32,000 nt of DNA from assembly GCF_000014785.1 (NCBI RefSeq), contig NC_008340.1:2310001-2342000 (forward strand), read 5' to 3'. Source of the stretch: Alkalilimnicola ehrlichii MLHE-1 (GTDB taxonomy: Bacteria > Pseudomonadota > Gammaproteobacteria > Nitrococcales > Halorhodospiraceae). The stretch's first letter is position 1, and each line of letters starts with the position of its first letter. Shown here piece after piece: positions 5,198 to 21,926 of the stretch. The notes under the pieces were generated by a model. The model was not told the origin of the DNA. It saw only the letters and a program-made list of their open reading frames with translations, and searched no databases. The position numbers and the translations under genes are program-made.

Positions 5198-5214
5198 TAC
5201 CCCCTCCTTCGGCC

Positions 5215-6216
5215 TCAGTGATAACCCTCGCCAGGGCGCACCTTGCCGCGGAAGACCCAGTAGGTCCAGGCGGTATACCCCATGACCACGGGCAGCAAGA
5301 GGAGCATGCCCACCAGCAGGAAGAGCTGGGCATCCGGGCTGGACGAGGCATCCCAGAAGGTGTGGTGCGGCGGCACCGCGTAGGGCCACATGCTGATCAG
5401 CAGACCCACGTAGAAGGTGGCAAACAGGGCCATGGCGGCAACGAAGGGCGTCCCCTCCTGGCGCTGCTGCAAGGCCCGCCACAACCAGTAGCTGACCAGC
5501 AGCGTCACCACCGGGAAGAGCCACAACCAGTTCAGGTTATCCAGCCACCGGCTCATGACCTCGGCATGGGCCAACGGGGTCCACAGGCTGACGATGACGA
5601 AGAAGGCCAACACGGCCAGGAGCGTACGGCTGGCGACCCGGCGTGCCCAGTCCTGCAGCTCCCCCTCGGTCTTCATGATCAGCCAGGTGGCGCCCAACAG
5701 CGCGTAGCCGGCCACCACGCCGAGACCGGTCATCACGACGAACGGCGTCAGCCAGTCCAGCGGACCGCCCACATAGGTGAAGCCTTCGGTCTCGAAACCC
5801 TGGATGTAGGCCCCGACCACGGCGCCCTGGGCGAAGGAGGCCACCCCGGAACCCAGGGTGAAGGCCCAGTTCCAGAAGGGCCGGGAACGGTTCGCCTTGG
5901 CCCGGAACTCGAACGCCACCCCGCGGAAGATCAAGCCCGCCAGAAGCAGGAAGACACCGATGTAGAGCGCCGGCAGAAAGACCGAGTAGACCAGCGGGAA
6001 GGCGCCCAGCAGGCCGGCACCACCCAGCACCAGCCAGGTCTCGTTGCCGTCCCACACCGGGGCCACCGAGTCCATCATCAGGTCACGCTCCTCCTCGCCG
6101 GGGGCGAAGGGATAGAGAATCCCCACGCCCAGGTCGAAGCCGTCGAGCAGGACGTACATGAACACGCCCAGCCCGATAATGGCAATCCAGACCAGAGTCA
6201 GATCAATCAATTCCAT
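5215..6216 (-). CDS. cydB: cytochrome bd-type quinol oxidase subunit II
   Basis: MELIDLTLVWIAIIGLGVFMYVLLDGFDLGVGIL...VAPVWDGNETWLVLGG are hallmark CydB motifs. ATG at 6216 is preceded by GGGAGG. The longer track ORF (to 6513) overlaps cydA and was trimmed. Confidence 0.9.
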   Translation of the reverse strand: MELIDLTLVWIAIIGLGVFMYVLLDGFDLGVGILYPFAPGEEERDLMMDSVAPVWDGNETWLVLGGAGLLGAFPLVYSVFLPALYIGVFLLLAGLIFRGVAFEFRAKANRSRPFWNWAFTLGSGVASFAQGAVVGAYIQGFETEGFTYVGGPLDWLTPFVVMTGLGVVAGYALLGATWLIMKTEGELQDWARRVASRTLLAVLAFFVIVSLWTPLAHAEVMSRWLDNLNWLWLFPVVTLLVSYWLWRALQQRQEGTPFVAAMALFATFYVGLLISMWPYAVPPHHTFWDASSSPDAQLFLLVGMLLLLPVVMGYTAWTYWVFRGKVRPGEGYH

Positions 6217-6223
6217 GGTGTTG

Positions 6224-7636
6224 TTACCTCCCGCTGGGCTGCGGCATCTCATCATCAAAAGTGGTACCGGCGGCGGACATCGGCCGCTTGGGGTGACCCC
6301 CTTCGCTGGGTGTCTCCACCTCAATCGCTTCCGGACCCTTGCGCACCACTCGGGTGACGTAATAGACGCCCGCACTGAAGACCACGGCGTAGACCGCCAC
6401 GTAGCCGATGAGCGAGAACAGGGCCATCCCCCCGGTAAGCGAGGGCGAGACCGCCTCCTCATACCGCATGATGCCGTGCACCACCCAGGGCATGCGCCCG
6501 ACCTCGGTGACAAACCAGCCGGACAGCACCGCCAGGAAGGGCGCGGGGATCATCCAGGAAAAGCCGCGCAGCAGCTTCTCAGACTCCCACAGGGTGCCAC
6601 GCCACTGCTTCCAGGCGCCCACCAGCGCCATCACGATCATCAGCAGGCCGATGCCCACCATGATGCGGAAGGCCCAGAAGACGATGGGCATATTGGGCCG
6701 GTCCTCCGGTGCCCAATCCTTCAGGCCGTGCACCTCGCCATCCAGGGAGTGGGTCAGGATCAGGCTGGCACCGTAGGGGATGCCGATCTCCATGAAGTTG
6801 CGCTCCTGCTCCATGCTCGGGATGGCGAAAAGCAGCAACGGCGCACCCGACTGGGTCTCCCAGGTGCCCTCCATGGCGGCCACCTTCTCCGGCTGATGCT
6901 CGAAGGTGTTCAGGCCATGGATGTCACCTACCACCAGCTGAGCCGGCGCAACGATGGCGAGCAGCACCAGGGTCATGCCCAGCGCCTTGCGCGACTCCAC
7001 CACCGCGCGGTCGCGGAGCAGATACCAGGCACTCACCCCCGCGACCACGAAACCGGCAGTCAGGAAGGAGGCCAATGCCATGTGGAAGAAACGCGGCCAG
7101 AAGGAAGGATTGAAGATCGCCTCCATCCAGGACGTTATCTGGAACACCCCGCCCTGAAGCTCAACGCCCGCCGGGGTTTGCATCCAGCTATTGGCCGAGA
7201 GGATCCAGAAGGATGAGATAAACGTCCCGATGGCCACCATGCAGGCCGCGAAAAGGTGTGTGCCCCGGGGCACTTTATTACGCCCGAAAAGCAGGATGCC
7301 CAGGAACACCGCCTCGAGGAAGAAGGCCGTGATCACCTCGTAGCTGAGGATAGGCCCAAGGAAATTGGCCGAGGCGTATGAGAACGCGCTCCAGTTCGTG
7401 CCGAACTGGAACGACATGACGATACCCGAAACCACGCCCATACCGAAGACCACGGCAAAGACCTGGGTCCAGAACTTGGCCAAGCGCTCGTACACGGGGT
7501 TGCCGGTGCGGTACAGCAGCCCCTCCAGGGCAGCGATGTACGATGCCAACCCGATGGTGAACACCGGGAATATGGCGTGGAAGGACACCACGAACCCGAA
7601 CTGTAGTCGGGACAGGAAAACCGGATCCAGCTCCAT
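6224..7636 (-). CDS. cydA: cytochrome bd-type quinol oxidase subunit I, short Q-loop (CIO-like length, ~470 aa)
   Basis: MELDPVFLSRLQFGFVVSFHAIFPVFTIGLA...GTNWSAF...EVITAFFLEAVFLG...NSWMQTPAG are CydA signatures. ATG at 7636 lies 6 nt after GGAGG. Its stop is 7 nt from the cydB start. Confidence 0.9.
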   Translation of the reverse strand: MELDPVFLSRLQFGFVVSFHAIFPVFTIGLASYIAALEGLLYRTGNPVYERLAKFWTQVFAVVFGMGVVSGIVMSFQFGTNWSAFSYASANFLGPILSYEVITAFFLEAVFLGILLFGRNKVPRGTHLFAACMVAIGTFISSFWILSANSWMQTPAGVELQGGVFQITSWMEAIFNPSFWPRFFHMALASFLTAGFVVAGVSAWYLLRDRAVVESRKALGMTLVLLAIVAPAQLVVGDIHGLNTFEHQPEKVAAMEGTWETQSGAPLLLFAIPSMEQERNFMEIGIPYGASLILTHSLDGEVHGLKDWAPEDRPNMPIVFWAFRIMVGIGLLMIVMALVGAWKQWRGTLWESEKLLRGFSWMIPAPFLAVLSGWFVTEVGRMPWVVHGIMRYEEAVSPSLTGGMALFSLIGYVAVYAVVFSAGVYYVTRVVRKGPEAIEVETPSEGGHPKRPMSAAGTTFDDEMPQPSGR

Positions 7637-7692
7637 TATCGACCTCCGTTGCAAAACTGCGATGCTGCAGCGAGCTGTTCGTCTGCAGCTTC

Positions 7693-8023: not shown

Positions 8024-8845
8024 TCAACCGGAGAAGGTCCGGTGCAGCATGAGAAGCGCGGTGATCAGGAGGAACAGGGCGAAGGCCCTTCTGAGCTGCA
8101 CGGTATTGAGATGCATGGCCAGTCTCACGCCGTAAGGGGCACAGAGCACGGTGGTCGGGGCGATCAACAGGAACCCCAGCAGACTGACATAACCCACGCT
8201 GAACGGCGGCCGCTCCGGCACCCCCATCCCGGCCCAGAGAAAGCCGATCACCCCCGGGATGGAGATGATGCAACCAATGGCCGCGGCCGTCCCCACCGAT
8301 CGGTGCATGGGGAAGCGCAGCGCCTGGAAGATGGGCACGCTCAGGGTACCCCCGCCGATGCCCATCATGGTGGAGACCGTGCCCACAAAGCCGCCAATGG
8401 CGCCCCGGACCCAGGGTCCGGGGGCCCGCTCCGCCAGGTGCGGCGGCGGTGCGGCCCGGGCCATGTTGAGGGCCACCAGCAGCCCCACGAAGCCGAACAC
8501 CCCAGTGAGGACCGCACCGGACACCCGGGCGCTCAGCAGGATGCCGAGCACCACGCCGAGCAACAGCGTCGGCCACAGTTCCCTGAGCAAGGCCACGTCC
8601 ACTGTGCCGTTGCGGTGGTGGCTGATGGCCGAGCGCAGGGAGGTGGGGACCACCACCGCCAAAGAGGTCCCCACCGCCAGGTGCATCTGCACCGCCGGGT
8701 CGACCTCCAACAGGGTGAACACGTAGAAGAGCACCGGCACGATAACGATGCCGCCCCCGACCCCCAAGAGACCGGCCATGATACCGGCCACCACCCCAGT
8801 GCCCAGCAACCCCGCCGCAAGCAATGCCAACTCCGGTGCGGTCAT
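8024..8845 (-). CDS. TSUP/TauE-SafE family (DUF81) anion permease
   Basis: 273 aa, polytopic and Gly-rich, with the internally duplicated signature GLLGVGGGIVIVP ... MGIGGGTLSVP typical of TauE/SafE. Confidence 0.85.
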   Translation of the reverse strand: MTAPELALLAAGLLGTGVVAGIMAGLLGVGGGIVIVPVLFYVFTLLEVDPAVQMHLAVGTSLAVVVPTSLRSAISHHRNGTVDVALLRELWPTLLLGVVLGILLSARVSGAVLTGVFGFVGLLVALNMARAAPPPHLAERAPGPWVRGAIGGFVGTVSTMMGIGGGTLSVPIFQALRFPMHRSVGTAAAIGCIISIPGVIGFLWAGMGVPERPPFSVGYVSLLGFLLIAPTTVLCAPYGVRLAMHLNTVQLRRAFALFLLITALLMLHRTFSG

Positions 8846-10443
8846 AGCCCCGCCACGCCTCCATCGCTACGCGGATCGGATGCCGCCCGGACATGGCCCG
8901 CCCGGTCACGCACCAGGAGGCCGGCGTGGCCCATCGCACTGTTGCGGGGCGGCACCACCTCCACGTCGTGGCCACGGCCCCGCAGCGCTTCCACCAACTC
9001 CGGCGGGAAATCCGCTTCCAGCTTCAGCGTGTCCGTCCCGGCCCCCCAGGTCCTGCCCAACAGCCAGCGCGGCGAGGCCACCGCCTGCTCCGGTGATTGG
9101 CCGTAGAGGGCCACCCGGGTGAACACCGCCGCCTGGGTCTGCGGTTGGCCCTCCCCCCCCATGGTGCCGTATACCAGGGTACGGCCGTCATCCAGAACCG
9201 CCAGGGCCGGGTTCAGGGTATGGAAGGGACGGCGGCCCGGCTTGAGGTCATTCAGGGCATCGGGCGCGAGCGAGAAGCTGCAGCCCCGGTTCTGCCAGAT
9301 CACGCCGGTGTCGGGGACGACCACCCCGCTGCCGAACTCATGAAACAGGCTCTGGATGAAGCTGACACAGCGACCCTCGGCGTCGATGGCCCCCAGCCAT
9401 ACGGTGTCCCCCGGGGAGGCCGGCTGCGGCCAGGCCAGGGCGCGGCTCCAGTCCACCCGATCCGCCAAGGCGTCCAGCGCCTCCGGCTTCAGCCACTGCG
9501 CTGGATCCTCCGGCAGATAGGCGGGATCGGTGACAACGCGGTCCCGCACCAGGAAGGCCTGCTTGACTGCCTCCACCATGGCGTGCAACCACTCTGCGCT
9601 CTCCGCCGCTACCGGGTGGCGCCGCTGCAGCCGGTCAAAGACTCCGAGGATCATCAACGAGGCCAACCCCTGAGTGGGTGGCGGCATGTTCCACAGGGTG
9701 CCCAGGCTGTGCCTCATGTTCAGCGGTGCCACCCGGCGGGCGGCATAGCCCGCCAGGTCCGGGGCCCGTATCGGACTGCCCGCCTCGGCGAGGCCCTCAC
9801 CCAGCGCCTGTGCCAGCTCGCCGGAATAGAAGTCCGCCAGGCCGACCGCCGCCAGGCGTTCCAGGGTGCTGGCCAGCTCCGGCTGGCGGAACGTCTCGCC
9901 CGGGACGGGAAAGGCCCCGCCGGGCAAGTACTGGGCATCAAACCCCGGCTGCGGCCCCAGCTCCGGATGCTTGTCCCGGGTGGCCTCGGCCTGGCTATGG
10001 GTCATCGGGTACCCCTCTCGCGCATGCGCCACGGCGGGCGCCAGGAGCCGGTGCAGGGGCAGGCGCCCCGACCACTGCGAACGACTAAGCGCCAGCGCCA
10101 CCTGCCAGCCGGCCACCGTGCCGGCGACGGTGTTGGCGGCCGCCCCTCCGCGGCTAGGGATGACCGTCAGCCCCCGGTCGCGGTACCAGGCGGGTGTCGC
10201 ACCGACCGCCGCCGGGCCACAGGCCTCGATACCCAGGGGCGCCCTGCCCGGCTCGCGCAACAACCAGAAGCTGTCGCCCCCCAGGCCGTTCATGTGCGGA
10301 TAGACCACCGCAATCGCTGCGGCAGCGGCCACCATGGCCTCGATGGCATTCCCCCCTTCCCGCAGCACGCCGGCGCCCGCCTCGGCCGCCAGATGATGGG
10401 GTGCACTCACCGCCGCCCTCAGCGGCGTGTCATTGGCAAGCAT
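8842..10443 (-). CDS. gamma-glutamyltransferase-family Ntn hydrolase, no signal peptide
   Basis: NGLGGDSFWLL and GDTVWLGAIDAEGRCVS (autoprocessing Thr nucleophile context), plus TMGGEGQPQ. I prefer the ATG at 10443 (GGAGG 8 nt upstream) over the ORF-track start at 10500. The stop overlaps the TauE start by 4 nt (ATGA). Confidence 0.85.
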   Translation of the reverse strand: MLANDTPLRAAVSAPHHLAAEAGAGVLREGGNAIEAMVAAAAAIAVVYPHMNGLGGDSFWLLREPGRAPLGIEACGPAAVGATPAWYRDRGLTVIPSRGGAAANTVAGTVAGWQVALALSRSQWSGRLPLHRLLAPAVAHAREGYPMTHSQAEATRDKHPELGPQPGFDAQYLPGGAFPVPGETFRQPELASTLERLAAVGLADFYSGELAQALGEGLAEAGSPIRAPDLAGYAARRVAPLNMRHSLGTLWNMPPPTQGLASLMILGVFDRLQRRHPVAAESAEWLHAMVEAVKQAFLVRDRVVTDPAYLPEDPAQWLKPEALDALADRVDWSRALAWPQPASPGDTVWLGAIDAEGRCVSFIQSLFHEFGSGVVVPDTGVIWQNRGCSFSLAPDALNDLKPGRRPFHTLNPALAVLDDGRTLVYGTMGGEGQPQTQAAVFTRVALYGQSPEQAVASPRWLLGRTWGAGTDTLKLEADFPPELVEALRGRGHDVEVVPPRNSAMGHAGLLVRDRAGHVRAASDPRSDGGVAGL

Positions 10444-10633
10444 CGCCGTCGCCTCCAATCGATGGCCCGGCTCACCCGCACATGCAACGGTTATCAACAA
10501 GCCGGTCCGGGGTCGTGGTCAAGCACTCACGGTAGCGCATTTTTACGCAGGAGAGCGCGGCTTGCCCCCCAGGCCGCGACCGCACCTCTGGAATCGACTA
10601 TGATCGAATGACCATCGGCCGAAGGAGCCCGAA

Positions 10634-11783: not shown

Positions 11784-12926
11784 CTATAGCCCCTCGCGCA
11801 CCACGGCCCGGCGCAATGCGCGCTGGCGGCGCAGGATACTGCGAAAGGCGGCGCGCAACGCCGCGTACTCCCCCCGGCTCAGTGCCGCCACCGGGACCTG
11901 GTTGTGCAGCGGGCGGCCGGCGTCGATGGCCTCGGCGTGCAGGCGGGCGCGGATACCGGCGACAACCTGGTAGCCCTGTATCAGCGCGCCGGCCTCACCG
12001 CGGTCCAGCGTGCCCGCCCCGGCGGCCTGCTGCAGGCGCTCCAGGGTATGGTGGGCGGGCAGGCCCGCGCGCACGGCATAGACCCGGGCCAACTGCACCA
12101 ACGGCAGCAGCCCGCCCTGTTTCAGATCCACCCGGCCCGCATTCGCACCCCACCAGGGGGTCCAGACCCGCCCCAGGCCATGCCACGGTGGGCGCGGCCG
12201 CGTCGCCCCATCGCTCAGCCGGGCGAGGAACCGGCGGTTGCTCGCCGCCCGCTCCAAGGCCTCCCGGCGTACGGGCTCAAACAGGGCCGGATCGCCGGCC
12301 ACCACCCGCAGATCCAGGTAATGGGTGGCCAGCATCACCGCCTTGCGTCCCGGGGCCTCAATGACTGTGAGCAGCGCCCGCCGCCAACTGCCGACGCTGC
12401 GCCGCCAATCACCATTCGCCGGACTGACGCCGCCCGGGCAATGCGGCAAGCCACAGGCCGCCAGCCCTTCCGTCACCCGCCCCGCCAGGCGCCGGTACCA
12501 GTCGTCGGCCCCCGGCGGGAGATCATCCCCATAGACCAGGGCATTATCCTGATCCGTGTGCACGGTCTGCTCACCCCGCCCCTGGGAGCCGCACGCGAGC
12601 CAGGCCCACGGCCCCGGCGCCGGCGTCCCCATTTCCGCCTCCGCGAGGACAATCAACCGCCGGGTCAGGGCGTCCACCCAACCGCTGACGATCCGGGCCT
12701 GGGTCACCGCGTCCCTGCCGGAGCGCTGCAGCGCGGCCTGACCCTCGGGGAAGCGGCCCGCAACGGCCTGGATGGCCGCCAGGTCCGATGCCTGCTCCAG
12801 AGCCCGCCCCAAACCCGTGCCCTCCGCACCGGTCCCTGCCGTTGCCCCGCTACCGGCACCTGATTCACTGGCGCCCGGAGCCCCTTGGTCCTGCGTCTCA
12901 TCCACAACACCCACCTCCCTGAACAC
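11784..12926 (-). CDS. DUF294-type putative nucleotidyltransferase (no sensor domains) with low-complexity Gly/Ala N-terminus
   Basis: LACGSQGRGEQTVHTDQDNALVY is a pol-beta-type GS-x-GR-x-E...DxD motif. The C-terminal half is collinear with the DUF294_C region of the two paralogs at 15293 and 20469. The start (GTG 12926) is uncertain. Confidence 0.75.
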   Translation of the reverse strand: MFREVGVVDETQDQGAPGASESGAGSGATAGTGAEGTGLGRALEQASDLAAIQAVAGRFPEGQAALQRSGRDAVTQARIVSGWVDALTRRLIVLAEAEMGTPAPGPWAWLACGSQGRGEQTVHTDQDNALVYGDDLPPGADDWYRRLAGRVTEGLAACGLPHCPGGVSPANGDWRRSVGSWRRALLTVIEAPGRKAVMLATHYLDLRVVAGDPALFEPVRREALERAASNRRFLARLSDGATRPRPPWHGLGRVWTPWWGANAGRVDLKQGGLLPLVQLARVYAVRAGLPAHHTLERLQQAAGAGTLDRGEAGALIQGYQVVAGIRARLHAEAIDAGRPLHNQVPVAALSRGEYAALRAAFRSILRRQRALRRAVVREGL

Positions 12927-13064: not shown

Positions 13065-13089
13065 AAAAAAAGCCCGCCGGATGGCGGGC
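13065..13089 (-). terminator. rho-independent terminator after the symporter gene
   Basis: The minus strand reads GCCCGCC-atcc-GGCGGGC followed by TTTTTTT, 67 nt past the symporter stop codon. Confidence 0.8.
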
Positions 13090-13107
13090 TTAAGCGTTCA
13101 GTCGGGT

Positions 13108-13155: not shown

Positions 13156-14937
13156 TCAGTCGGCGCGCGGCACACGCACGCTCTCCACCAGCTTCTGGAT
13201 CTCGGCCGGCGGCGGCGCGGTCATCTTCGCCACGGCGAAGGAGACAATGCCGTTCGCCACGGCGCCGATCACACCGAATGCGGCCGGGTTGATACCGAAC
13301 AGCCAGTACTCGGCGGTGTCCGGCAGCAGGGCCAGCTGCGGGAAGAACAGGAAGCCCTTGTAGGTGAAGACGTAACCCAGGGTCACGATCAGACCCGCCA
13401 GCATGCCGGCGATGGCCCCTTCGCGGTTCATCTTCCGGTAGAAGATGCCCATCATCAGGGTCGGGAAGAGGCTGGCCGCGGCGAGACCGAAGGCCAGCGC
13501 CACCACCTCGGCCGCGAAGCCTGGTGGGTTCAAGCCCAGATACCCCGCGAAGATAATGGCGACGGCCATGGAGATACGGGCCGCGAGCATCTCGTTCTTC
13601 TCGCTGATATCGGGTTTGAACACGCCTTTGAGCAAGTCGTGCGAAACCGCCGAGGAGATGGCCAATAGCAGACCGGCCGCGGTGGACAGCGCCGCCGCGA
13701 TACCACCCGCCGCCACCAGGGCGATCACCCAGGTCGGCAGACCGGCGATCTCCGGGTTGGCCAGCACGATGATGTCACGGTCCAGGTTGGTGATCTCCGA
13801 GCCTTCCCAGCCCCACTGCTCGCGGGCCATCTGGTCGAACTCCGCATTGCCGTCGTTGTAGTACTGGATACGGCCGTCGTTGTTCTTGTCCTCCCACTGC
13901 AGCAGACCGGTCTGCTCCCAGCGGTACATCCAGTCGGGCAGGTCCTCATACCGGGTGTGGGCCTCAGCCTCACCGATGCTGTGGCGGTCCACCAGCACGG
14001 TGTCGAGCAGGTTCCACATCGCCATGGCACCCACAGCCGGGGCGGTGGTGTAGAGCAGGGCGATAAAGACCAGGGACCAGCCGGCGGACTTACGCGCGTC
14101 GCGGATACGCGGCACGGTGAAGAACCGGATGATCACGTGCGGCAGACCTGCGGTACCGATCATCAGGGAGATGGTCAGCAGGAACATGTTGAGCATGTTG
14201 AAGCCGCCCTCGGTGGCCGAGTAGGCCGCAAAGCCCAAGTCCACCAGGGTCTGGTCCAGCGCCTCCAACAGATAGGTGTCGGAGCCGGCGAGGGTGCTGC
14301 CGAGACCGATCTGCGGGATCGGCACGCCGGTGATGGCGATGGCGATGAAGACCGCCGGGACGGTGTAGGCGAAGATCATCACGCAGTACTGGGCGATCTG
14401 GGTATAGGTGATACCCTTCATACCGCCGAACACAGCGTAGATGAACACCACCACCATGCCGGAGATCAGGCCCACGGTCAGCGGCACCTCCAGGATGTTG
14501 GAGAAGGCGATACCGACGCCGCGCATCTGGCCGATAACGTAGGTGATGGAGATGGCCAGCAGGCAGATGACCGCAATCACCCGCGCCGTCTTCGAGTAGA
14601 ACCGGTCGCCGATGAACTCGGGCACCGTGAACTTACCGAACTTACGCAGGTAGGGGGCCAGCAGCAGGGCCATCAACACGTAGCCACCGGTCCAGCCCAT
14701 CAGGAAGGCGCCACCCGTAAAGCCCAGGAAGGCAATCAGGCCGGCCATGGAGATGAAGCTGGCGGCGGACATCCAGTCAGCGGCCGTGGCCATGCCGTTG
14801 GCGACGGGGTTGACCCCCTTGCCGGCCACGTAGAACTCGCTGGTGCTACCGGTGCGGGCCCAGATCGCGATACCGATGTAGAGCGCGAAGGTGAGACCCA
14901 CCACGGTCAGGTTGAGTATCTGTTGAGATCCTTCCAT
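13156..14937 (-). CDS. sodium:solute symporter (SSS) large subunit, ActP/VC_2705-like
   Basis: 593 aa and polytopic. The N-terminus EFYVAGKGVNPVANGMATAADWMSAASFISMAGL is typical of the acetate/monocarboxylate SSS clade. It follows a DUF4212 small-subunit gene by 12 bp. Confidence 0.9.
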   Translation of the reverse strand: MEGSQQILNLTVVGLTFALYIGIAIWARTGSTSEFYVAGKGVNPVANGMATAADWMSAASFISMAGLIAFLGFTGGAFLMGWTGGYVLMALLLAPYLRKFGKFTVPEFIGDRFYSKTARVIAVICLLAISITYVIGQMRGVGIAFSNILEVPLTVGLISGMVVVFIYAVFGGMKGITYTQIAQYCVMIFAYTVPAVFIAIAITGVPIPQIGLGSTLAGSDTYLLEALDQTLVDLGFAAYSATEGGFNMLNMFLLTISLMIGTAGLPHVIIRFFTVPRIRDARKSAGWSLVFIALLYTTAPAVGAMAMWNLLDTVLVDRHSIGEAEAHTRYEDLPDWMYRWEQTGLLQWEDKNNDGRIQYYNDGNAEFDQMAREQWGWEGSEITNLDRDIIVLANPEIAGLPTWVIALVAAGGIAAALSTAAGLLLAISSAVSHDLLKGVFKPDISEKNEMLAARISMAVAIIFAGYLGLNPPGFAAEVVALAFGLAAASLFPTLMMGIFYRKMNREGAIAGMLAGLIVTLGYVFTYKGFLFFPQLALLPDTAEYWLFGINPAAFGVIGAVANGIVSFAVAKMTAPPPAEIQKLVESVRVPRAD

Positions 14938-14949
14938 TGTTCTATAGCC

Positions 14950-15234
14950 TCAGTCTTCGTAGACGTCGTATTCGCGATCCAGTTTGTTCATGCGCCAGGC
15001 ATAGAAGAAGATGATCACGAGGAACACGTAGATCGAGCCTTGCTGCGCGAACCAGAACCCGAGCGGATAGCCGCCGATGCTGAAGTTATTCAGCCAGTCG
15101 GCGAGCAACACGCCGAGTACCAGCGAGACAAACGCCCAGACGACCAGGCAACCCCCAATGATCTTGAGGTTCTTTCGCCAGTATTCGCCTCTGTCTTTTG
15201 TCACCTGATTTTCCGAATCAGACATGGATGACAC
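14950..15234 (-). CDS. DUF4212 small subunit of Na+/solute symporter
   Basis: 94 aa with two TM helices. It carries the motif GGYPLGFWFAQQGSIYVF...YAWRMNKLD characteristic of the family that pairs with VC_2705-type symporters. GAGGAG lies upstream of the ATG. Confidence 0.85.
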   Translation of the reverse strand: MSSMSDSENQVTKDRGEYWRKNLKIIGGCLVVWAFVSLVLGVLLADWLNNFSIGGYPLGFWFAQQGSIYVFLVIIFFYAWRMNKLDREYDVYED

Positions 15235-15292: not shown

Positions 15293-17284
15293 TTACAGTT
15301 GATACTCCGAAGTGAGTTTTGATTGTAGTTTCCTCGCCTCGCGAAATGCCTCCTTGAGAATCTTTTTATCCAGTTCATTGAGTTCGTTGGGTGAAACATG
15401 ATTGCTGAGCGGCTTCCCGGCCGCTGCCTGCTCCTGGTGCTGCCGGGTGCGCAGCACCTGAATATAGTGGTAGGCGATAACCCACGCCTCCACATCCCCC
15501 CGGACCAGGGCACCGGCCTCGGCCGCCTGCTCCAGGCGGTCCACCGTGTTGGTGGCCGGGAGCCGGTGGGCCAGGGAAAAGATACGCGCCGCGTCCACGA
15601 AGGGCGTGACGCCGTTGAGCTTGAGGTCGATGACGTTGCGCTGATCACCGTGGGTTCGGGTGACGAAATCGCGGATCACCCCCAGCGGGGGCCGGTTGCG
15701 CAGGGCGTTGGCCGCCATCTGCTTGCGGAACCGGCTGTTGCGTGAAGTCCGCTCCAGCAACCAGGTCCGAAGCCCCTCGGCCCCGCCGGTGGGCCCGTGG
15801 ATGACCCGGAAGTCGAAAAAGATGGCGGCCTTGAGCAGGTGCTCCGGTGTCCCCTGGTCGATCCAGCGCTTGAAGCGCTGCTGCCACTCCTCCAGCGACA
15901 GGCAGCACTCCGGGTTGCCGGCCATGATGTTGCCGGGGCAGAGGGGATAGCCGCAGCGGTCCAGGGCCTGGTTGATGCGCTGGGCGACCGGCACCAGCCG
16001 CGCACGGATGGCGTCGGCATCGGGGCCGTCGTCATCGACCATGAACAGGATGCCGTTGTCCTGGTCGGTTTTCAGGGTCTGTTCCTGTCGCCCTTCGCTG
16101 CCGAAGGCGATCCAGCAAAAGTCGATATCGGAGACGTCATCATCGGCCTCGGCCAGGCAGAGCTGGATGATGCGCTCACCGATATGATCGTTGAGCAGGG
16201 TGATCATCTGCATGATCTGCGCGACCTTGACCCCCTGGTCGATCATCTGCCCGACCAGGCGGTGGATGTCCGCCTGCAGCGGCGCCAGGGCCTCGACACT
16301 GGCCGCCCGACGGATGCTGCGGGTGAGATTGACCAACCCCACCCGTTGCAGCGTGAACAGGTCGCGCTCGGAGATCACCCCCTGCAGGCGGCCCCGCTCC
16401 ACCACACAGACGTGGTGGATGCCGTGCTGCGCCATGACCATGGCCGCCTCGAAGGCGAAGGCCGACCGCGGCATGGATACCGGGTCGGAGGTCATCACCT
16501 CGCGCATGGGGCGATCGAGCGGCACCTGGGGCAGGGCCACCCGGCGCAGCAGGTCGTGCAGGGTAAAGACCCCCAGTGGGCGAAGCCGGTCATCGGTGAC
16601 GACAATGCTCCCCACCCGCTGGGTATCCATGGCCTGCAACGCTTCTTTTATTGTGGTCTCCTCCCGGCAGGTCACCGGTTCCCGCCGCAGCCGCTCGCCC
16701 AGCGGGATGTCCAGCGAGGTGTCGCCGTTGCCCAGCCCCTTCACCTCCTGGCTCTGATACTGGGCCAGTAGTTGGTCCAGCATGGTGGAGAGGCGCCGGG
16801 TGCAGAAGGCATGAAACTCCTCCGACACGTGCAGCAAATGGGTAAAGTCGCCTTCCTCGAGTTCGAGGCAGGTGGTCTCCTCCAGGGCGCGATGGATGGT
16901 CCGCGCCGGCTTGCCGGTCACCAGGGCGCCCACCGGGAAGCACTCACCCGCGCGCAATTCCCAGACGTTGCCCGCCTCTTGATCGTCACCCCGCGGCGAC
17001 TCCCCGCCCACCCGGCCGGAACGAATGATAAACAGCCGGTCGACAGGGCCGCGGTCGGGATGGGTCAGCGCCTCGCCCCGGGCATAGACACGGATGGCCA
17101 AGCGGTCCACCAGATAGCCCAAGTGCTCATCGGTCATGTCGTCGAAGGGCGCATACTGGCGAAGAAAGACCCGCACGTCGCCCCGATCGGACGCTGCGCC
17201 CTGCTCCGCCTTGTTGTGTTGGTCGTCGCCCATCTTTATGCCACTGCGCGCTGAAAGTACGGCAGGGAGACTTGCAGAAGTCAT
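15293..17284 (-). CDS. cNMP-binding + CBS pair + DUF294 nucleotidyltransferase signal-transduction protein
   Basis: An N-terminal CAP-effector-like fold (RGEALTHPDRGPVDRLFIIRSGRV...ELRAGECFPVGAL) is followed by two CBS motifs, then IAFGSEGRQEQTLKTDQDNGILF and a DUF294_C tail. An alternative start at 17233 is possible; neither start has a clear SD. Confidence 0.85.
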   Translation of the reverse strand: MTSASLPAVLSARSGIKMGDDQHNKAEQGAASDRGDVRVFLRQYAPFDDMTDEHLGYLVDRLAIRVYARGEALTHPDRGPVDRLFIIRSGRVGGESPRGDDQEAGNVWELRAGECFPVGALVTGKPARTIHRALEETTCLELEEGDFTHLLHVSEEFHAFCTRRLSTMLDQLLAQYQSQEVKGLGNGDTSLDIPLGERLRREPVTCREETTIKEALQAMDTQRVGSIVVTDDRLRPLGVFTLHDLLRRVALPQVPLDRPMREVMTSDPVSMPRSAFAFEAAMVMAQHGIHHVCVVERGRLQGVISERDLFTLQRVGLVNLTRSIRRAASVEALAPLQADIHRLVGQMIDQGVKVAQIMQMITLLNDHIGERIIQLCLAEADDDVSDIDFCWIAFGSEGRQEQTLKTDQDNGILFMVDDDGPDADAIRARLVPVAQRINQALDRCGYPLCPGNIMAGNPECCLSLEEWQQRFKRWIDQGTPEHLLKAAIFFDFRVIHGPTGGAEGLRTWLLERTSRNSRFRKQMAANALRNRPPLGVIRDFVTRTHGDQRNVIDLKLNGVTPFVDAARIFSLAHRLPATNTVDRLEQAAEAGALVRGDVEAWVIAYHYIQVLRTRQHQEQAAAGKPLSNHVSPNELNELDKKILKEAFREARKLQSKLTSEYQL

Positions 17285-17415: not shown

Positions 17416-19560
17416 TCAGGTGCGGGAGGACTCCATCCCCTCGCCCTGTGCACTGAAGACCGCGGAGCGGTGGCGGAGTTCCGCGGCCATCCGCGAGGCC
17501 TTCATCACCTCGCCGAACGTCTGGTAGCCCTGCGCCTCCAGCCGCTCAATGATACGAACCAGCAGCTCGGCGGTGGCCAGGGTATCGCCCAGAGCGGTGT
17601 GACGGCCGGTGATGGCAATGCCGTAGCGGTCGCACAGCGCGTCCAGCGAGTGGTCCTCCTCATCACCGTCCAGCAGGGCCGAGAGCAGCAGGGTGTCGAG
17701 CACCGGATTATCGAAGCGCACCCCGGCCTCGCGCTCCTTCATGCTGATGAACTTCATATCGAAGGCGGCATTGTGCGCCACCAGGACGGCGTCCCCCACG
17801 AAGGATTTAAACTGGGGCAGCACCACCTCGATGGGCGGCTTGTCCTGCACATCGTCGTCGGTGATGCCGTGGAAGCGCACGGAGCCAGGCGGGATGGGGC
17901 GTCCCGGATTGATGATTCGGTCAAAGGTCTCACCGGTCAGTACCCGGCCGTTCACCACCCGGACCCCGGCGATGGAGATGATCTCATCGCCCCCCTCGGG
18001 GTTCAGCCCGGTCATCTCGCAATCGAACACCACGAAACTCAGGTCGGCCAGCCGCCGGGCCGCCAGGGCCTCGTCCCCGGCATACTCCTGCATCAGCCCG
18101 AAGTCGTAGAACTCGGGCCGTGCCGGCAGCCGCTCCTCCTCCTCCATGAACTGGGGCCGGCGGGACATCATCAGCGGCAAGCGCAACAAGGCCTGCCCCT
18201 CGCGCCTGCCCGTCTGGCTCCAGGGCTCACAGCCATGCCGCTCCAGGATATCCCCCAGGTGCTGGCCGCCCACCTCATCGCCGCCGCAGGGGATCGCCAT
18301 CCAGCGGTTCAGCTCGCCGGTAGTGATCGGCTCGCCCTGCCAGCTGATGTCCACGTACACCCGGGTATCGCCCAGCAACGCCTCCACATCGAAGGCCGTC
18401 GCGCCGGTATGGTCATGCACCTGTCGCACCAGGCAATCCAGCGCCAGCATCAGTGAAAGGCTGTCGCCATGGACCCAGAGCGGCAGCCCCACCAGGGTCA
18501 ACCGGACGTCCGGGAGGTCCATCAGCCGCTGCTGCAGGCAGTTGACCAGATCCCCCACGAAGACGTCGGCCATGGGCCACCGCCCCAGGTTGTAGCCCCG
18601 GATCTGGTGGGCCAGCTCGTCGATCTGCTCGCTCAGCTTCTCACTCTCGCTGCGAATGACGGCATCGAACGACTGGCGCTCCTCCGGCTTCATGTCCGGA
18701 TAGCTGGCCACGGTCTCCGCGGCGGCGCGCAGGTTGCCCACCACGCCACGCAGGTCGCGGGTGAGCGCCCGGCGCACGGCGTCACCCTGGGCCAGTCGGG
18801 TGAGATCGCTGGAGATGTCCACCAGGGTGATGAGATAACCGGTAATCTGGCCCTGGCTGTTCTGAATCAAGGCCATGCGCCCATGGAACATGCGCTGGGC
18901 ATCGGCGCTGGTGCAGACGAAGGGGGCGGAGAGTTCCGTCGGCAGGTCCACATCGCCCTTGTGGCGGCGCTCCAGGCGCTCCAGGGTGTGCTGCACCGGC
19001 GGACTGGAGAGCACGTTGAACAGGGGGCGGCCGAGACCGATGGCCTCCGGGTGTCCGAGGATAGTCCCGGCCGCCCGGTTGTAGAGCATGATCTGGTGCT
19101 GGCGGTTGCAGACCAGCACCCCTTCGCTGAGTCCCTGCAGGATGGTCTCCAGCCAGGTCTTCTGCTCGGAGAGTTCGGCGGTGGCCGATTGCATGGCCTT
19201 GCGGGTCTCTCGCCGCGACTTGCGCAACGCATCGGCCAGTGACTCCACCGTGGTCGGCAGGTCCCCGAGGGCATGGCGCCGGGGGAGGATGATCTCCTGG
19301 TTCGCCTGGCGGGATTCCAGCAGCGCCCGGACCCCGCGGCTGAGCTTCCGGGAGGGCCGCATCAACAGGCGCTCCAGCAAGAGCCAGCTGACCAGCCCGA
19401 CGGCCACCACCCCAAGTACCCCGAGGCTGGCCACCAGCGCGGTGTTATCGGTGCCCCCCGGCTCGCTGGGCGTGACGCTGTAGACCGCGAGCACCACTAT
19501 GGCGGCGGCGACGGCAACTGCGCCCGTCAGGACCCAGGTGACGAAGGGCCGCTGCCGCAT
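17416..19560 (-). CDS. membrane HAMP-PAS sensor with degenerate histidine-kinase-like core fused to C-terminal DEDDh (DnaQ/PolIII-epsilon-like) 3'-5' exonuclease
   Basis: Two N-terminal TM helices with a ~13-aa loop, then a HAMP-length linker and a PAS-like segment (LSEGVLVCNRQHQIMLYNRAAGTILG). The H-box position reads LTRDLRGVV, where HisKA has SHELRTPL. There are no clear N/G boxes. Exo motifs are intact: FDCEMTG, VAHNAAFDMKF, HTALGDTLATAEL. Confidence 0.85.
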   Translation of the reverse strand: MRQRPFVTWVLTGAVAVAAAIVVLAVYSVTPSEPGGTDNTALVASLGVLGVVAVGLVSWLLLERLLMRPSRKLSRGVRALLESRQANQEIILPRRHALGDLPTTVESLADALRKSRRETRKAMQSATAELSEQKTWLETILQGLSEGVLVCNRQHQIMLYNRAAGTILGHPEAIGLGRPLFNVLSSPPVQHTLERLERRHKGDVDLPTELSAPFVCTSADAQRMFHGRMALIQNSQGQITGYLITLVDISSDLTRLAQGDAVRRALTRDLRGVVGNLRAAAETVASYPDMKPEERQSFDAVIRSESEKLSEQIDELAHQIRGYNLGRWPMADVFVGDLVNCLQQRLMDLPDVRLTLVGLPLWVHGDSLSLMLALDCLVRQVHDHTGATAFDVEALLGDTRVYVDISWQGEPITTGELNRWMAIPCGGDEVGGQHLGDILERHGCEPWSQTGRREGQALLRLPLMMSRRPQFMEEEERLPARPEFYDFGLMQEYAGDEALAARRLADLSFVVFDCEMTGLNPEGGDEIISIAGVRVVNGRVLTGETFDRIINPGRPIPPGSVRFHGITDDDVQDKPPIEVVLPQFKSFVGDAVLVAHNAAFDMKFISMKEREAGVRFDNPVLDTLLLSALLDGDEEDHSLDALCDRYGIAITGRHTALGDTLATAELLVRIIERLEAQGYQTFGEVMKASRMAAELRHRSAVFSAQGEGMESSRT

Positions 19561-20201: not shown

Positions 20202-20453
20202 ATGGTGCAGGAAAAGAAGCGCAGTGTTATACCACCGGATCGCGGTCTACGCATCCTGATGAAAATCGGTGTTCCTATCGGGGCCATCAGCCTGCTATCG
20301 CTGTGGCTGGCCTATTTCACCGACACCCCGATGTTGATGCCGCTGTTTCTCATTACCGCGCTCCTGGCCTTCGCCATCGGCATGGCGTACAACATTCGCC
20401 TGGTCATCCTGATGGTTCGGCAAAAGCGCCAGGCGGAGCGCCAGCAACCCTAG
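20202..20453 (+). CDS. small hypothetical membrane protein (2 predicted TM helices)
   Basis: 83-aa ORF with basic ends and two hydrophobic stretches (IGVPIGAISLLSLWLAYF, LMPLFLITALLAFAIGMAY). GC is locally lower than in neighbouring genes. I recognise no homology. Confidence 0.5.
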   Translation: MVQEKKRSVIPPDRGLRILMKIGVPIGAISLLSLWLAYFTDTPMLMPLFLITALLAFAIGMAYNIRLVILMVRQKRQAERQQP

Positions 20454-20468: not shown

Positions 20469-21926
20469 TCAGATATCGCCGACCAGGGTCTTACGCAGAC
20501 GCCTGAGCAGCCCCTGGGAGGTCTTCATGCTGCGGACCAACTGATCGTGTTCCCGGCGGGTGAGGGTCTCCGGCGGCAGGTGCGGCCGGGGCGCGCGGCC
20601 CGCCGCCACCTCCTGGACCTGGTGGGCGAGCAGCAGGTGGCACATGAAGCCATGGGCGTGGGTCAGCGCGTCCAGGTCATTGGTGTTCAGCGCCCCCAGT
20701 TCATGGAGCCGCCTCATGCGCTCCCGGGTGGCGGTCGCCTCCACCCCATGGGCCAACGCATATAGGCGCACCGCCTCGACGATGGGCATGATGCCGTGGC
20801 GTTTGAGATTGATCTCGCCCTGGTGGATCGAGTCATCGGACTCCGTGACCAAGCGGTCAAACCACCCCAGCCCCACCTCTTTCGGCGAGTCGGCCAGCAT
20901 CAACGCCCGCATGAATCCCGGTGAGCCGCCCACCCGCTCCACCATCAGGCGGCGCAGCGACTGCCCGAGGGCAACGTCCCCGCAGACCACCCGAAAGTCC
21001 AGCAACACACTGGCGTTGAGCAGTACCTGGGGACGGCGGCTGCGCATCCAGTAGTCGAGTTGTGCCAGCCACTGGCTGTGGCTCTTCCGCCAGAGTGGGT
21101 TGCGGGCCATGACGTGCCCCTGGCAGTAGGGGATCCCCACCTGGTCCAGATCCCGGTTGAGCCGGGCGGCGAACTCCGCGAAATAGGCATCCACCGCGGT
21201 GTGCTCGGCGTCCGGGTAGTCGGCGATGATCAGGCCATTGTCCTGATCCGGCCCGAGGAAGCTCTCACGCCGGCCTCCCGAGCCCATCACCATGACCGCG
21301 AAGGCCGCCGGCGGCCGCCCCCAGCCATCCAGCGCCAGACCCTCCACGGCGTTGGCAGTGAGCTGGCGGTAGATGTCCTCGTTGATTCCGGACAGCAGGG
21401 CCTGGATCTCGGGGGCATCCAGCCTGTCCGCCAGCAGGTCGCCGGCCAGGTCGGACTGGGCCTGCCGGATGGCGCGCAGGCCGGATACCGTCGCCGACTG
21501 GGCGAACCGGTCCAGGCGCTCGAGGTAGCGGGGCAATCCCGCACCCAGGGCGTCGGCCCGGGACAACAGGCCAATCACCCGCCCGGCATCGTCCACCACC
21601 GGCAGGTATTGCGCACGGGTGACACGCATCACCCCCACCAGGCGGTACAACCGCTCATCGTGCCGCGCCACCCGCACCGGCCCGGTCAGCACCTCACTTA
21701 CCGGCGTCTCCGGCGCCACCCTGAAGGCCACGCGATGGGCCACGTCGCGGCCACTCAACTGCCCGACCACCCGCCCCCCGCCGCGGGTGATCACGGCGCA
21801 ATTGCTTCCCGTCTCCGCGAGCCGCGCAATGACCTTTTCGCAGGGGGTGGTACGGTCACAGACCACCACGGCCGGACGCATGGCGTCCTTGGCAGTGCGC
21901 AGGAAGAGCTCCGAATACCCAGCCAC
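20469..21926 (-). CDS. CBS pair + DUF294 nucleotidyltransferase protein
   Basis: An N-terminal CBS pair (MRPAVVVCDRTTPCEKVIARL...VVGQLSGRDV; YLPVVDDAGRVIGLLSRADAL) is followed by VMVMGSGGRRESFLGPDQDNGLII and a DUF294_C tail collinear with the other two paralogs. Confidence 0.85.
   Translation of the reverse strand: MAGYSELFLRTAKDAMRPAVVVCDRTTPCEKVIARLAETGSNCAVITRGGGRVVGQLSGRDVAHRVAFRVAPETPVSEVLTGPVRVARHDERLYRLVGVMRVTRAQYLPVVDDAGRVIGLLSRADALGAGLPRYLERLDRFAQSATVSGLRAIRQAQSDLAGDLLADRLDAPEIQALLSGINEDIYRQLTANAVEGLALDGWGRPPAAFAVMVMGSGGRRESFLGPDQDNGLIIADYPDAEHTAVDAYFAEFAARLNRDLDQVGIPYCQGHVMARNPLWRKSHSQWLAQLDYWMRSRRPQVLLNASVLLDFRVVCGDVALGQSLRRLMVERVGGSPGFMRALMLADSPKEVGLGWFDRLVTESDDSIHQGEINLKRHGIMPIVEAVRLYALAHGVEATATRERMRRLHELGALNTNDLDALTHAHGFMCHLLLAHQVQEVAAGRAPRPHLPPETLTRREHDQLVRSMKTSQGLLRRLRKTLVGDI

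Follow-up and report, generated by a model that had tools for sequence, protein, structure and literature searches.

Genes at the locus and layout of the fusion protein

The gene analysed here lies in a 32,000-nt stretch of DNA of Alkalilimnicola ehrlichii MLHE-1 (referred to below as the window) and encodes a membrane-anchored protein of 714 amino acids (aa) in which a HAMP-like segment, a PAS domain and a histidine-kinase-like core are followed by a DnaQ-type DEDDh exonuclease. The open reading frame (ORF) starts with ATG, and in a database comparison its product and the A. ehrlichii MLHE-1 'exonuclease domain-containing protein' were 100% identical. A gene for a receiver-only response regulator precedes it, and genes for a DUF294 nucleotidyltransferase and for both subunits of a sodium:solute symporter follow it. 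All features are collected in Table 1, where the kinase-like core is divided into a dimerization and histidine phosphotransfer (DHp)-like part and a catalytic and ATP-binding (CA)-like part. Numbers beginning with L or P are our working labels of related loci and proteins.

Table 1. Features of the fusion gene and of its surroundings in the window (TM, transmembrane; AF2, AlphaFold2; HMM, hidden Markov model; cNMP, cyclic nucleoside monophosphate)
Feature	Position	Strand	Basis or remark
Fusion gene: TM-TM, HAMP-like, PAS, DHp-like, CA-like, DEDDh exonuclease	17416..19560	(-)	ORF, AF2
TM helix 1, ~aa 7-29	19474..19542	(-)	Hydropathy peak at 13-24; AF2 helix 3-29
TM helix 2, ~aa 40-62	19375..19443	(-)	Hydropathy peak at 47-58; AF2 helix 39-82
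HAMP-like helix-connector-helix, ~aa 63-125, running into coiled coil	19186..19374	(-)	AF2 and profile
PAS domain, aa 137-250	18811..19152	(-)	Pfam PAS, PAS_9, PAS_4; WalK PAS structures
DHp-like helical hairpin, aa 251-320, Arg268 at phospho-His position	18601..18810	(-)	HMM alignment to VicK/HK853 H-boxes
CA-like degenerate HATPase domain, aa 328-465	18166..18579	(-)	VicK/HK853 alignment, Foldseek, conservation
Near-invariant R-P-E-F-Y-D-F motif, aa 481-487, joining CA-like domain to exonuclease	18100..18120	(-)	Conservation
DnaQ-type DEDDh 3'-5' exonuclease, aa 505-680	17521..18048	(-)	Pfam, PDB matches, Foldseek, conservation
Response regulator, receiver only, 140 aa	19560..19982	(-)	Pfam Response_reg E 1.3e-27
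cNMP-binding + 2 CBS + DUF294 nucleotidyltransferase, 663 aa, 131 nt downstream of fusion gene	15293..17284	(-)	Pfam
DUF4212 small subunit, sodium:solute symporter	14950..15234	(-)	Pfam E 2.5e-35
SSF large subunit, last gene of putative operon	13156..14937	(-)	Pfam SSF E 8e-52
Intrinsic-terminator-like hairpin, 9 bp, 7 GC, then T5	13070..13091	(-)	Likely operon end
Second DUF294 paralogue, 2 CBS + DUF294, 485 aa, upstream of regulator gene	20469..21926	(-)	Pfam
Third DUF294 paralogue, DUF294 + DUF294_C only, 380 aa, beyond terminator	11784..12926	(-)	Pfam

An initial annotation, made from the sequence of this stretch, had described two TM helices, a HAMP-length linker and a PAS-like module. 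The helices are found again as hydropathy peaks centred on residues 13-24 and 47-58 and as helices of an AF2 model of the full-length protein (57-sequence alignment; mean predicted local distance difference test score (pLDDT) 87.9, predicted TM-score (pTM) 0.49). Since the outside loop between them has only ~10 aa, the protein is predicted to have no periplasmic sensor domain. The linker is less clear-cut: the AF2 geometry (helix up to residue 82, loop 83-100, helix 101-143), its position and its profile alignments with the N-terminal HAMP region of VicK and with HtrII (E 0.017) agree with a HAMP domain, but Pfam HAMP has no match in the protein at E<=0.1 and the HAMP structures match weakly (Af1503 HAMP chimeras, E 0.3-0.5).

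The PAS assignment holds well. The Pfam PAS match at aa 137-249 has E 4.5e-8, three PAS models score above their curated cut-offs (PF00989, 33.5 bits versus 22.6; PF13426, 30.1 versus 27; PF08448, 24.2 versus 23.1), the family profile finds WalK PAS structures at E 4e-6, and a five-stranded sheet with helices is modelled at residues 147-248. Residues of the PAS pocket are strongly conserved among 101 diverse representatives of the family (N161 in 101/101, C151 in 95/101, Y160 in 87, R178 in 86 and H191 in 86, the last sitting on the long helix 186-202), which points to a particular small molecule or cofactor as ligand, perhaps a carboxylate or heme.

Kinase-like core and exonuclease domain

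The region downstream of the PAS domain had been described as laid out like HisKA plus HATPase, with T-R-D-L-R-G-V-V at residue ~268 where kinases have the H-box and with no recognizable N, G1 or G2 boxes. Both halves of that description are borne out. As to the layout, a profile of 57 homologues aligns with the VicK structure 4i5s over positions 67-460, i.e. from HAMP through PAS and DHp to CA (E 6e-11), and matches HK853, YycG and EnvZ chimeras more weakly. The AF2 model has helices 250-286 and 292-320 as a hairpin followed by an alpha/beta domain at 331-465, and Foldseek comparison of that model with the PDB returned WalK-YycH, VicK, LOV-kinase chimeras, ThkA, HK853, YycG and DivL (E 1e-9 to 5e-20). 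A second AF2 model, restricted to residues 321-714 (pLDDT 92.0, pTM 0.67), again matched the CA domains of YycG/WalK (E 2e-8). The profile and model comparisons thus show that the protein keeps a predicted WalK/VicK-like HAMP-PAS-DHp-CA fold, even though Pfam HisKA and HATPase_c have no match at E<=0.1 and no Pfam family at all matches aa 250-500.

The catalytic residues are another matter. Residue-level alignments of the H-box, N-box and G1 regions were taken from a profile limited to the N-terminal 440 residues, in which the family consensus altrdlRgpvanlRaAaEtl aligns with NVSHELRTPLTSVKSYLEAL of VicK and NISHELRAPLTAIKAYAETI of HK853. T-R268-D-L-R-G pairs with S-H-E-L-R-T of both kinases, so that Arg268 (codon at nt 18757-18759) is placed at the phospho-His position; neighbouring H-box residues such as xxLRxPxxxxxxxxE are kept in the family. 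The VicK N-box NILNNAIKY pairs with alirr.iae, R, Q or E standing at the N-box position; G1 of VicK (SDQGLGIP) pairs with vWkGepvp, so that DxGxG reads W407-x-G409-x-P; and of G2 (GxGLGL) a single Gly remains. Column 268 holds R in 89 and E in 15 of 117 close homologues, with other residues in the rest and His in none. Among 101 representatives of 50%-identity clusters it holds E (55), D (14), Q (6), R (5), other residues and, once, His; that sole member has W-R-G instead of DxGxG and lacks the N-box. The 117 homologues have no conserved His elsewhere in the DHp hairpin; the closest column in which His is partly conserved (323, 74/117; Tyr in A. ehrlichii) falls just past it. A hidden or shifted phospho-His is therefore ruled out, as there is no such column within the hairpin and the lone His-bearing member is degenerate in its CA domain. 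With phospho-His and ATP-binding boxes missing family-wide, these alignments show canonical autophosphorylation to be predicted impossible. Residual phosphatase function was also considered; it is unlikely, because the HisKA phosphatase motif H-E/D-x-x-T/N has lost its T/N (the +4 position is G in 67, A in 26, S in 10 and Q in 8 of the 117).

The degenerate domain is nevertheless not featureless. The CA-like part has near-invariant residues of its own (W328-P-M, W362, D366, W407, G409, H442, W447 and R460), which argues that it is under selection for a new function rather than decaying. In the DHp-like part the most conserved stretch is helix alpha-1 just below position 268 (R271 and N276-L-R-A-A-A-E282); in the HK853-RR468 complex the part of alpha-1 below the H-box is the surface on which the regulator docks.

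The exonuclease domain presents the opposite picture, since nothing in the whole protein is better conserved than its catalytic residues. Pfam RNase_T matches aa 510-667 (E 1.3e-40), and the complete set of Exo I, II and III residues that had been noticed at ~505-680 proved to be conserved, Pfam and fold comparison agreeing with it. D513-C-E515 (Exo I) has both acidic residues invariant in 57 sequences and present in 96/101 diverse representatives; in H596-N-A-A-F-D601 (Exo II), D601 is invariant in the 57 and present in 97/101; H654-T-A-L-G-D659 (Exo III, H-x4-D) is invariant in the 57, H654 being kept in 95/101 and D659 in 97/101. These alignments show an intact active site, and the domain is predicted to be active. 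By sequence its closest solved relatives are the Thermotoga PolC exonuclease 2p1j (E 1.7e-28, or 7e-44 with a profile), PolC, Pol III epsilon and DinG, RNase T matching at only E 1e-3 to 1e-5; by fold (Foldseek), PolC superimposes with a root-mean-square deviation of 1.5 A and epsilon gives a TM-score of 0.85. The RPEFYDF motif that leads into the domain has R, P, F, Y and D invariant in the 57 sequences, with E and the last F nearly so, and each of its positions is 76-95% conserved among the 101 representatives. A remnant, [FY]DF, is kept in forms without DHp-CA.

Distribution of the family and its partner genes

The initial annotation had raised the question of how widespread the fusion is. 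It is common: when one genome per GTDB species was scanned with a pattern, at least 468 loci proved to encode the N-terminal (non-exonuclease) part. Those listed include Ectothiorhodospiraceae, Rhodospirillales, Rhodobacterales and Competibacteraceae as well as bins labelled Nitrospirae and Desulfobulbales. An exhaustive HMMER search (E<=1e-30) gave 214 clusters at 50% identity, nearly all of ~700 aa. A sequencing or assembly artefact is excluded, the same ~700-aa architecture being present in complete genomes and in hundreds of independent assemblies. Homologues carry the database labels 'exonuclease domain-containing', 'PAS domain-containing', 'histidine kinase' or 'DNA polymerase III subunit epsilon', and full-text literature searches (DUF294 with exonuclease; pseudo-histidine kinase with exonuclease) returned no description of the fusion.

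Simpler relatives indicate how the protein is put together. When alphaproteobacterial exonucleases were mapped on the family HMM, TM-HAMP-PAS was found to run straight onto the exonuclease in Limimaricola (464 aa) and Ruegeria (479 aa), the Shinella protein (561 aa) adds the start of the DHp only, and the protein of Paracoccus denitrificans (659 aa) includes the CA-like domain; a regulator gene is present in the last and in none of the other three. Exonucleases that adjoin a DUF294 gene also occur alone, in a metagenome (273 aa, 47% identity) and in Vibrio (241 aa, 28% identity). The stand-alone enzyme of Vibrio aquimaris (L085, 8873-9598) reads VVHYQRIEREF where HNAxFD is expected, and its Exo II may be atypical. 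Magnetospirillum and relatives (P0133, P0142 and P0179) have ~410-aa forms with half a DHp, the CA-like domain and the exonuclease. These begin in the second DHp helix and look genuine rather than fragmentary, because they lie on long contigs and have N-terminal sequence of their own. Given the stand-alone, PAS-only and DHp-CA forms, the exonuclease is the constant element, PAS the first addition and the kinase-dead DHp-CA module the second, which arrives with the regulator.

The regulator was followed through 80 related loci. In 68 of them its gene immediately precedes the fusion gene on the same strand, and 4 more begin at a contig edge. In the window the two genes share 1 nt, the last base of the regulator's stop codon being the first of the fusion gene's start codon (TAATG), and they are translationally coupled. 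The receiver is intact: its phospho-chemistry residues D10, D11, D54, T84 and K106, as well as Y103, do not vary among 31 extracted orthologues. Its identity is 55-64% throughout, versus 42-72% for the fusion protein, and this holds even where the latter reaches only ~43%. After extension by a metagenome scan, the plasmid and metagenome set had 13 short forms with readable upstream sequence (TM-HAMP-PAS-exonuclease without DHp-CA) and 17 long forms; the regulator accompanies none of the former and 10 of the latter. Over all loci it is found with 78 of 93 forms that have DHp-CA and with 0 of 13 that lack it (Fisher P = 2.4e-9, phylogeny ignored), and the plasmid and metagenome set alone gives P = 1e-3.

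Clustering of all ORFs in the 80 loci identified, as the next commonest neighbour, a ~918-aa protein encoded directly downstream of the fusion gene. As seen in L043, it joins an SSF transporter-like domain to HisKA (E 1.6e-20) and HATPase_c (E 1.6e-29), with no other type of Pfam match, and its kinase boxes are canonical (SHELRTPL, NLLSNAVKF, DNGPGIP and GTGLGL). This SSF kinase is directly downstream in ~46 of the 80 loci, and in several more it is nearby or cut by contig ends. A ~90-aa membrane protein without Pfam match usually precedes it (L043, 3702-6712; ~46 loci), and the pair resembles the small-subunit/symporter arrangement of DUF4212 and SSF, possibly as a transceptor. The A. ehrlichii clade departs from this pattern, as the fusion gene is followed there by genes for the cNMP-CBS-DUF294 nucleotidyltransferase, DUF4212 and an SSF symporter. 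One Halorhodospira locus (L010) has both arrangements, the SSF kinase and DUF294/DUF4212/SSF.

These distributions bear on whether the regulator has any part in controlling the nuclease. According to the main alternative, the nuclease is gated by PAS and HAMP alone, DHp-CA being a rigid dimerizing spacer and the regulator acting elsewhere, for example as a phosphate sink of the SSF kinase. The short TM-HAMP-PAS-exonuclease relatives speak for it, as they have no regulator, so that PAS can evidently drive the nuclease alone; so do several full-length loci without regulator and the strong conservation of the PAS pocket. It leaves unexplained, however, why a DHp-CA region of ~220 aa should have its own conserved residues (W328PM, W362, D366, W407, H442, W447 and R460), why the regulator occurs only with DHp-CA and why the regulator is better conserved than the fusion protein. 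We consider this alternative possible but doubtful.

A second alternative would make the protein chiefly a tuner of the pathway, with a pseudokinase that binds the regulator, removes its phosphate or forms heterodimers with the SSF kinase, and with an exonuclease that is accessory or inactive in vivo. DivL of Caulobacter crescentus, a pseudo-histidine kinase that senses DivK~P, acts in this way on CckA (PMC4211667). The DHp/CA-like core is, moreover, 25-43% identical to the DHp/CA of the adjacent SSF kinase, a value in the range of generic HisKA paralogy, and it may or may not descend from this neighbour. This explanation appears improbable, however, as the exonuclease residues are better conserved than anything else in the protein, the phosphatase motif is lost (G, A, S or Q at +4), and it is the exonuclease that is constant across stand-alone, PAS-only and full-length forms, the kinase-like part being optional.

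The remaining genes of the putative operon point to metabolism. The DUF294 gene that had been placed next to the fusion gene is indeed there (DUF294 match, E 1e-48); this match, like those of the PAS domain, the kinase-like region and the exonuclease, is much too strong to be due to chance. In related loci, too, such a gene is found downstream of the exonuclease. Three DUF294 paralogues with different sensor sets (2 CBS; cNMP plus 2 CBS; none) surround the single exonuclease gene, and the same triple occurs in the related Ectothiorhodospiraceae loci L001, L003, L004 and L024. At many loci a gene of the type with 2 CBS and DUF294 is no more than 9 kb away from the fusion gene; for DUF294 the count at this distance is 43 of the 80, the other 37 having none so near. 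Paracoccus, Ruegeria, Shinella and Limimaricola have the order (acs)-DUF4212-SSF-DUF294-hypothetical-[regulator]-exonuclease, acs being present in Paracoccus and Limimaricola. The conserved hypothetical protein in this order has ~170 aa, apparently two TM helices and no Pfam match. Its place is fixed in alphaproteobacterial loci and in many from metagenomes, with DUF294 on one side and the (regulator-)exonuclease gene on the other (L081, 7814-8311; L082, 7799-8317; L083, 8824-9354; L084, 8847-9368); it is missing from the A. ehrlichii window. In Pseudomonas putida, PP_0353 (RNase_T family) and PP_0354 (cNMP-CBS-DUF294) form an operon (PMC9927547, PMC8402216, bioRxiv 10.64898/2026.09.07.749794). 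They are the genes most dependent on the SSF-domain kinase system MxtR/ErdR (CrbS/CrbR), their mutants have mild pyruvate and propionate phenotypes only, and their function is called unknown (PMC9927547; bioRxiv 10.64898/2026.09.07.749794). Because the linkage to DUF294, DUF4212/SSF and acs matches that of PP_0353/PP_0354, a role of the fusion protein in controlling short-chain carboxylate uptake or assimilation is likely by analogy.

The same context can be set against the idea that the protein is a DnaQ repair or proofreading paralogue, or an anti-phage nuclease, which happens to carry sensor domains. Its best sequence and fold matches are the exonuclease domains of Pol III epsilon, PolC and DinG, and the PADLOC models DEDDh and PDC-S48 match the domain. 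The idea is nevertheless very unlikely to be right: the protein is membrane-anchored and embedded in a PAS, pseudokinase and regulator context, its linkage to symporters, acs and DUF294 is constant and repair or defence genes are absent nearby, and the P. putida homologue mutant has carbon-source rather than repair phenotypes. An anti-phage role in particular is unsupported, because the PADLOC matches cover the generic exonuclease domain only, DUF294 has none, and the gene context is metabolic.

As for the substrate, which is independent of how the nuclease is regulated, the exonuclease may reverse the reaction of DUF294, by trimming nucleotides that DUF294 adds to a 3' end of RNA or DNA, hydrolysing a nucleotidyl-protein adduct or degrading a nucleotide messenger; the last of these, which the initial annotation had proposed, is suggested by gene linkage. 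The two genes are linked in Gamma- and Alphaproteobacteria in three exonuclease architectures, three DUF294 paralogues flank one exonuclease in the window, PP_0353 and PP_0354 form an operon, and esterification of a nucleoside monophosphate (NMP) by a Pol-beta-type enzyme and release of 5'-NMP by a DEDDh enzyme would be chemically opposite. DUF294 is a predicted GlnD/GlnE-like transferase and not a known cyclase, and an opposition of Pol-beta-type transferase and 3'-5' exonuclease on a 3' end or a nucleotidyl adduct would be somewhat more natural than the destruction of a messenger. Against these points, any product of DUF294 is hypothetical, DUF294 is not encoded within 9 kb at 37 of the 80 fusion loci, the nuclease is closest to DNA proofreading exonucleases and not to Orn or RNase T, and DUF294 is unrelated to the known messenger cyclases. 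We offer this substrate tentatively, as an unlikely one.

Several further features of the window may be recorded. Of six terminator-like sites, the hairpin behind the SSF gene is the strongest; the rest on the minus strand are weaker, and any that lie between 19982 and 13156 fall inside genes. A scan with Rfam gave nothing in the window at gathering thresholds, and no sigma-70-like promoter was matched between 11500 and 22200. An 83-aa hydrophobic ORF without Pfam match (20202-20453(+)), which separates the regulator gene from the DUF294 gene upstream of it, is kept at the equivalent position in L001, L002, L010 and L038 (41-61% identity). Elsewhere the window encodes an EAL-domain protein (2667-3725(+)), a PAS-containing sigma-54 activator (3740-5524(-)), cytochrome bd oxidase subunit I (6224-7654(-)) and a gamma-glutamyltranspeptidase (8842-10500(-)); no evident link of these four genes to the fusion was seen.

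Proposed mechanism and comparison with known systems

The reading that we favour, with a probability of about 0.5, is that of a membrane-anchored pseudo-histidine kinase joined to a DnaQ-type exonuclease, in which a DivL-like module would read the phosphorylation of the regulator and, together with PAS input, gate the nuclease. Most likely, a two-component pathway has the fusion protein as its enzymatic output. The initial annotation had proposed a signal-regulated, membrane-tethered nuclease to which the pseudokinase relays PAS/HAMP input. The first part remains the most reasonable reading; a mere PAS/HAMP relay does not, since the linkage to regulator and SSF kinase had been missed, and this linkage together with the co-occurrence of regulator and DHp-CA points to regulator input via the pseudokinase. 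The steps could be as follows: (i) the SSF kinase, where present, would phosphorylate the regulator, (ii) the kinase-dead DHp/CA module would, like DivL, bind the regulator and read its phosphorylation state, (iii) the cytoplasmic PAS domain would add a metabolite or redox input, (iv) regulator~P and PAS ligand would change the geometry of the DHp dimer and (v) this change would turn the pair of C-terminal exonuclease domains on or off. The presumed operon of A. ehrlichii would run from regulator, fusion and cNMP/CBS-DUF294 to DUF4212 and the SSF symporter, apparently the same module as PP_0353/PP_0354, and the exonuclease would probably remove 3'-terminal nucleotides from a nucleic acid connected with DUF294 during short-chain carboxylate uptake or assimilation. 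A fuller scheme, in which the pathway from SSF kinase to receiver-only regulator ends in a membrane nuclease instead of a transcription factor, gates it through the kinase-dead DHp/CA module, and sets it against DUF294 in a reversible 3'-nucleotide switch on RNA or on a nucleotidylylated protein that tunes the uptake and assimilation of acetate and short-chain carboxylates, is speculative and would be hard to back at more than low odds.

A number of observations weigh against the DivL-like reading. The window has no histidine kinase that could feed the regulator, either in a tblastn search with the SSF kinase or in a Pfam search of ten further ORFs. The regulator is absent from the full-length loci L001, L002, L004 and L038, which are close relatives of A. 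ehrlichii, and from 7 of the 17 metagenomic or plasmid full-length loci; since such loci exist, some lineages can do without regulator input. The co-occurrence statistic takes no account of shared ancestry among the loci, binding of the regulator to the DHp-like domain is suggested by gene order and conservation only, and the loss of kinase activity is a prediction from sequence. Finally, the inter-domain arrangement is modelled with moderate confidence (pTM 0.49 for the full-length protein and 0.67 for CA-exonuclease, where the linker has a pLDDT of ~70), and the models are silent on gating.

Two-component signalling is usually described as leading from kinase to regulator and on to transcription, to cyclic di-GMP or to chemotaxis. 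If the favoured reading is true, a nuclease under post-translational two-component control would be a new output class, and the family with this presumed output is large and phylogenetically broad, with no fewer than 468 loci in reference genomes and with 214 clusters at 50% identity. It would also be a second case, evolved independently of DivL, in which a dead kinase core reads the phosphorylation of a regulator. Each component is of a known kind; what is new is the combination, namely a kinase-dead histidine kinase core that would regulate a nuclease, a receiver-only regulator and a transporter-like kinase. Of the MxtR/ErdR targets in the acetate regulon of Pseudomonas and Vibrio, the exonuclease/DUF294 pair is the strongest, and the fused forms would name its likely inputs (regulator~P and a PAS ligand) and offer a soluble, assayable construct.

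Among known systems, the class I kinases WalK, VicK and YycG (4i5s, 9a5d, 4u7o and 5c93) and HK853 resemble the fusion protein (TM, HAMP-like, PAS, DHp-like, CA-like) in domain order and predicted fold, the family profile matching WalK/VicK-type kinases at E 6e-11 over ~390 residues. The fusion protein differs from them in lacking the phospho-His, the N-box Asn, DxGxG and GxGLGL and in carrying a C-terminal exonuclease. That exonuclease has complete DEDDh motifs and is 33-36% identical to the domains of Pol III epsilon, PolC and the N-terminal part of DinG, but in contrast to these proofreading domains it is tethered to the membrane behind sensors, bears the RPEFYDF motif and is not part of a polymerase or helicase. 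The kinase encoded downstream in most loci resembles the CbrA/CrbS type, with its SLC5(SSF) domain fused to HisKA-HATPase, and has a small membrane protein ahead; it is encoded by a gene separate from that of the fusion and is missing from the A. ehrlichii window.

The PP_0353/PP_0354 module is the nearest counterpart in gene context, PP_0353 being compared here by its reported domain and context and not by sequence. In both cases an exonuclease lies beside an identically built DUF294 gene and is tied to an acetate or solute symporter and to control by an SSF-kinase system, the A. ehrlichii order being fusion, DUF294, DUF4212 and SSF. PP_0353, however, has only an RNase_T domain reported, and its operon is a reported transcriptional target of ErdR, whereas the fusion protein has its own sensor, pseudokinase and receiver-only regulator, which implies post-translational control. 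In regulatory logic the closest parallel is DivL, which was itself among the fold matches of the fusion protein (4q20, Foldseek) and which likewise has a PAS-DHp-CA order, a replaced phospho-acceptor His and a single-domain regulator as partner. The likeness is a functional analogy rather than shown orthology, binding of the regulator by the fusion protein being presumed. In DivL the His is replaced by Tyr, and the CA domain, which is retained, relays to another kinase, CckA; the fusion protein has Arg, Glu or Asp in place of the His, has lost its ATP boxes and would direct its output to the exonuclease covalently fused to it.

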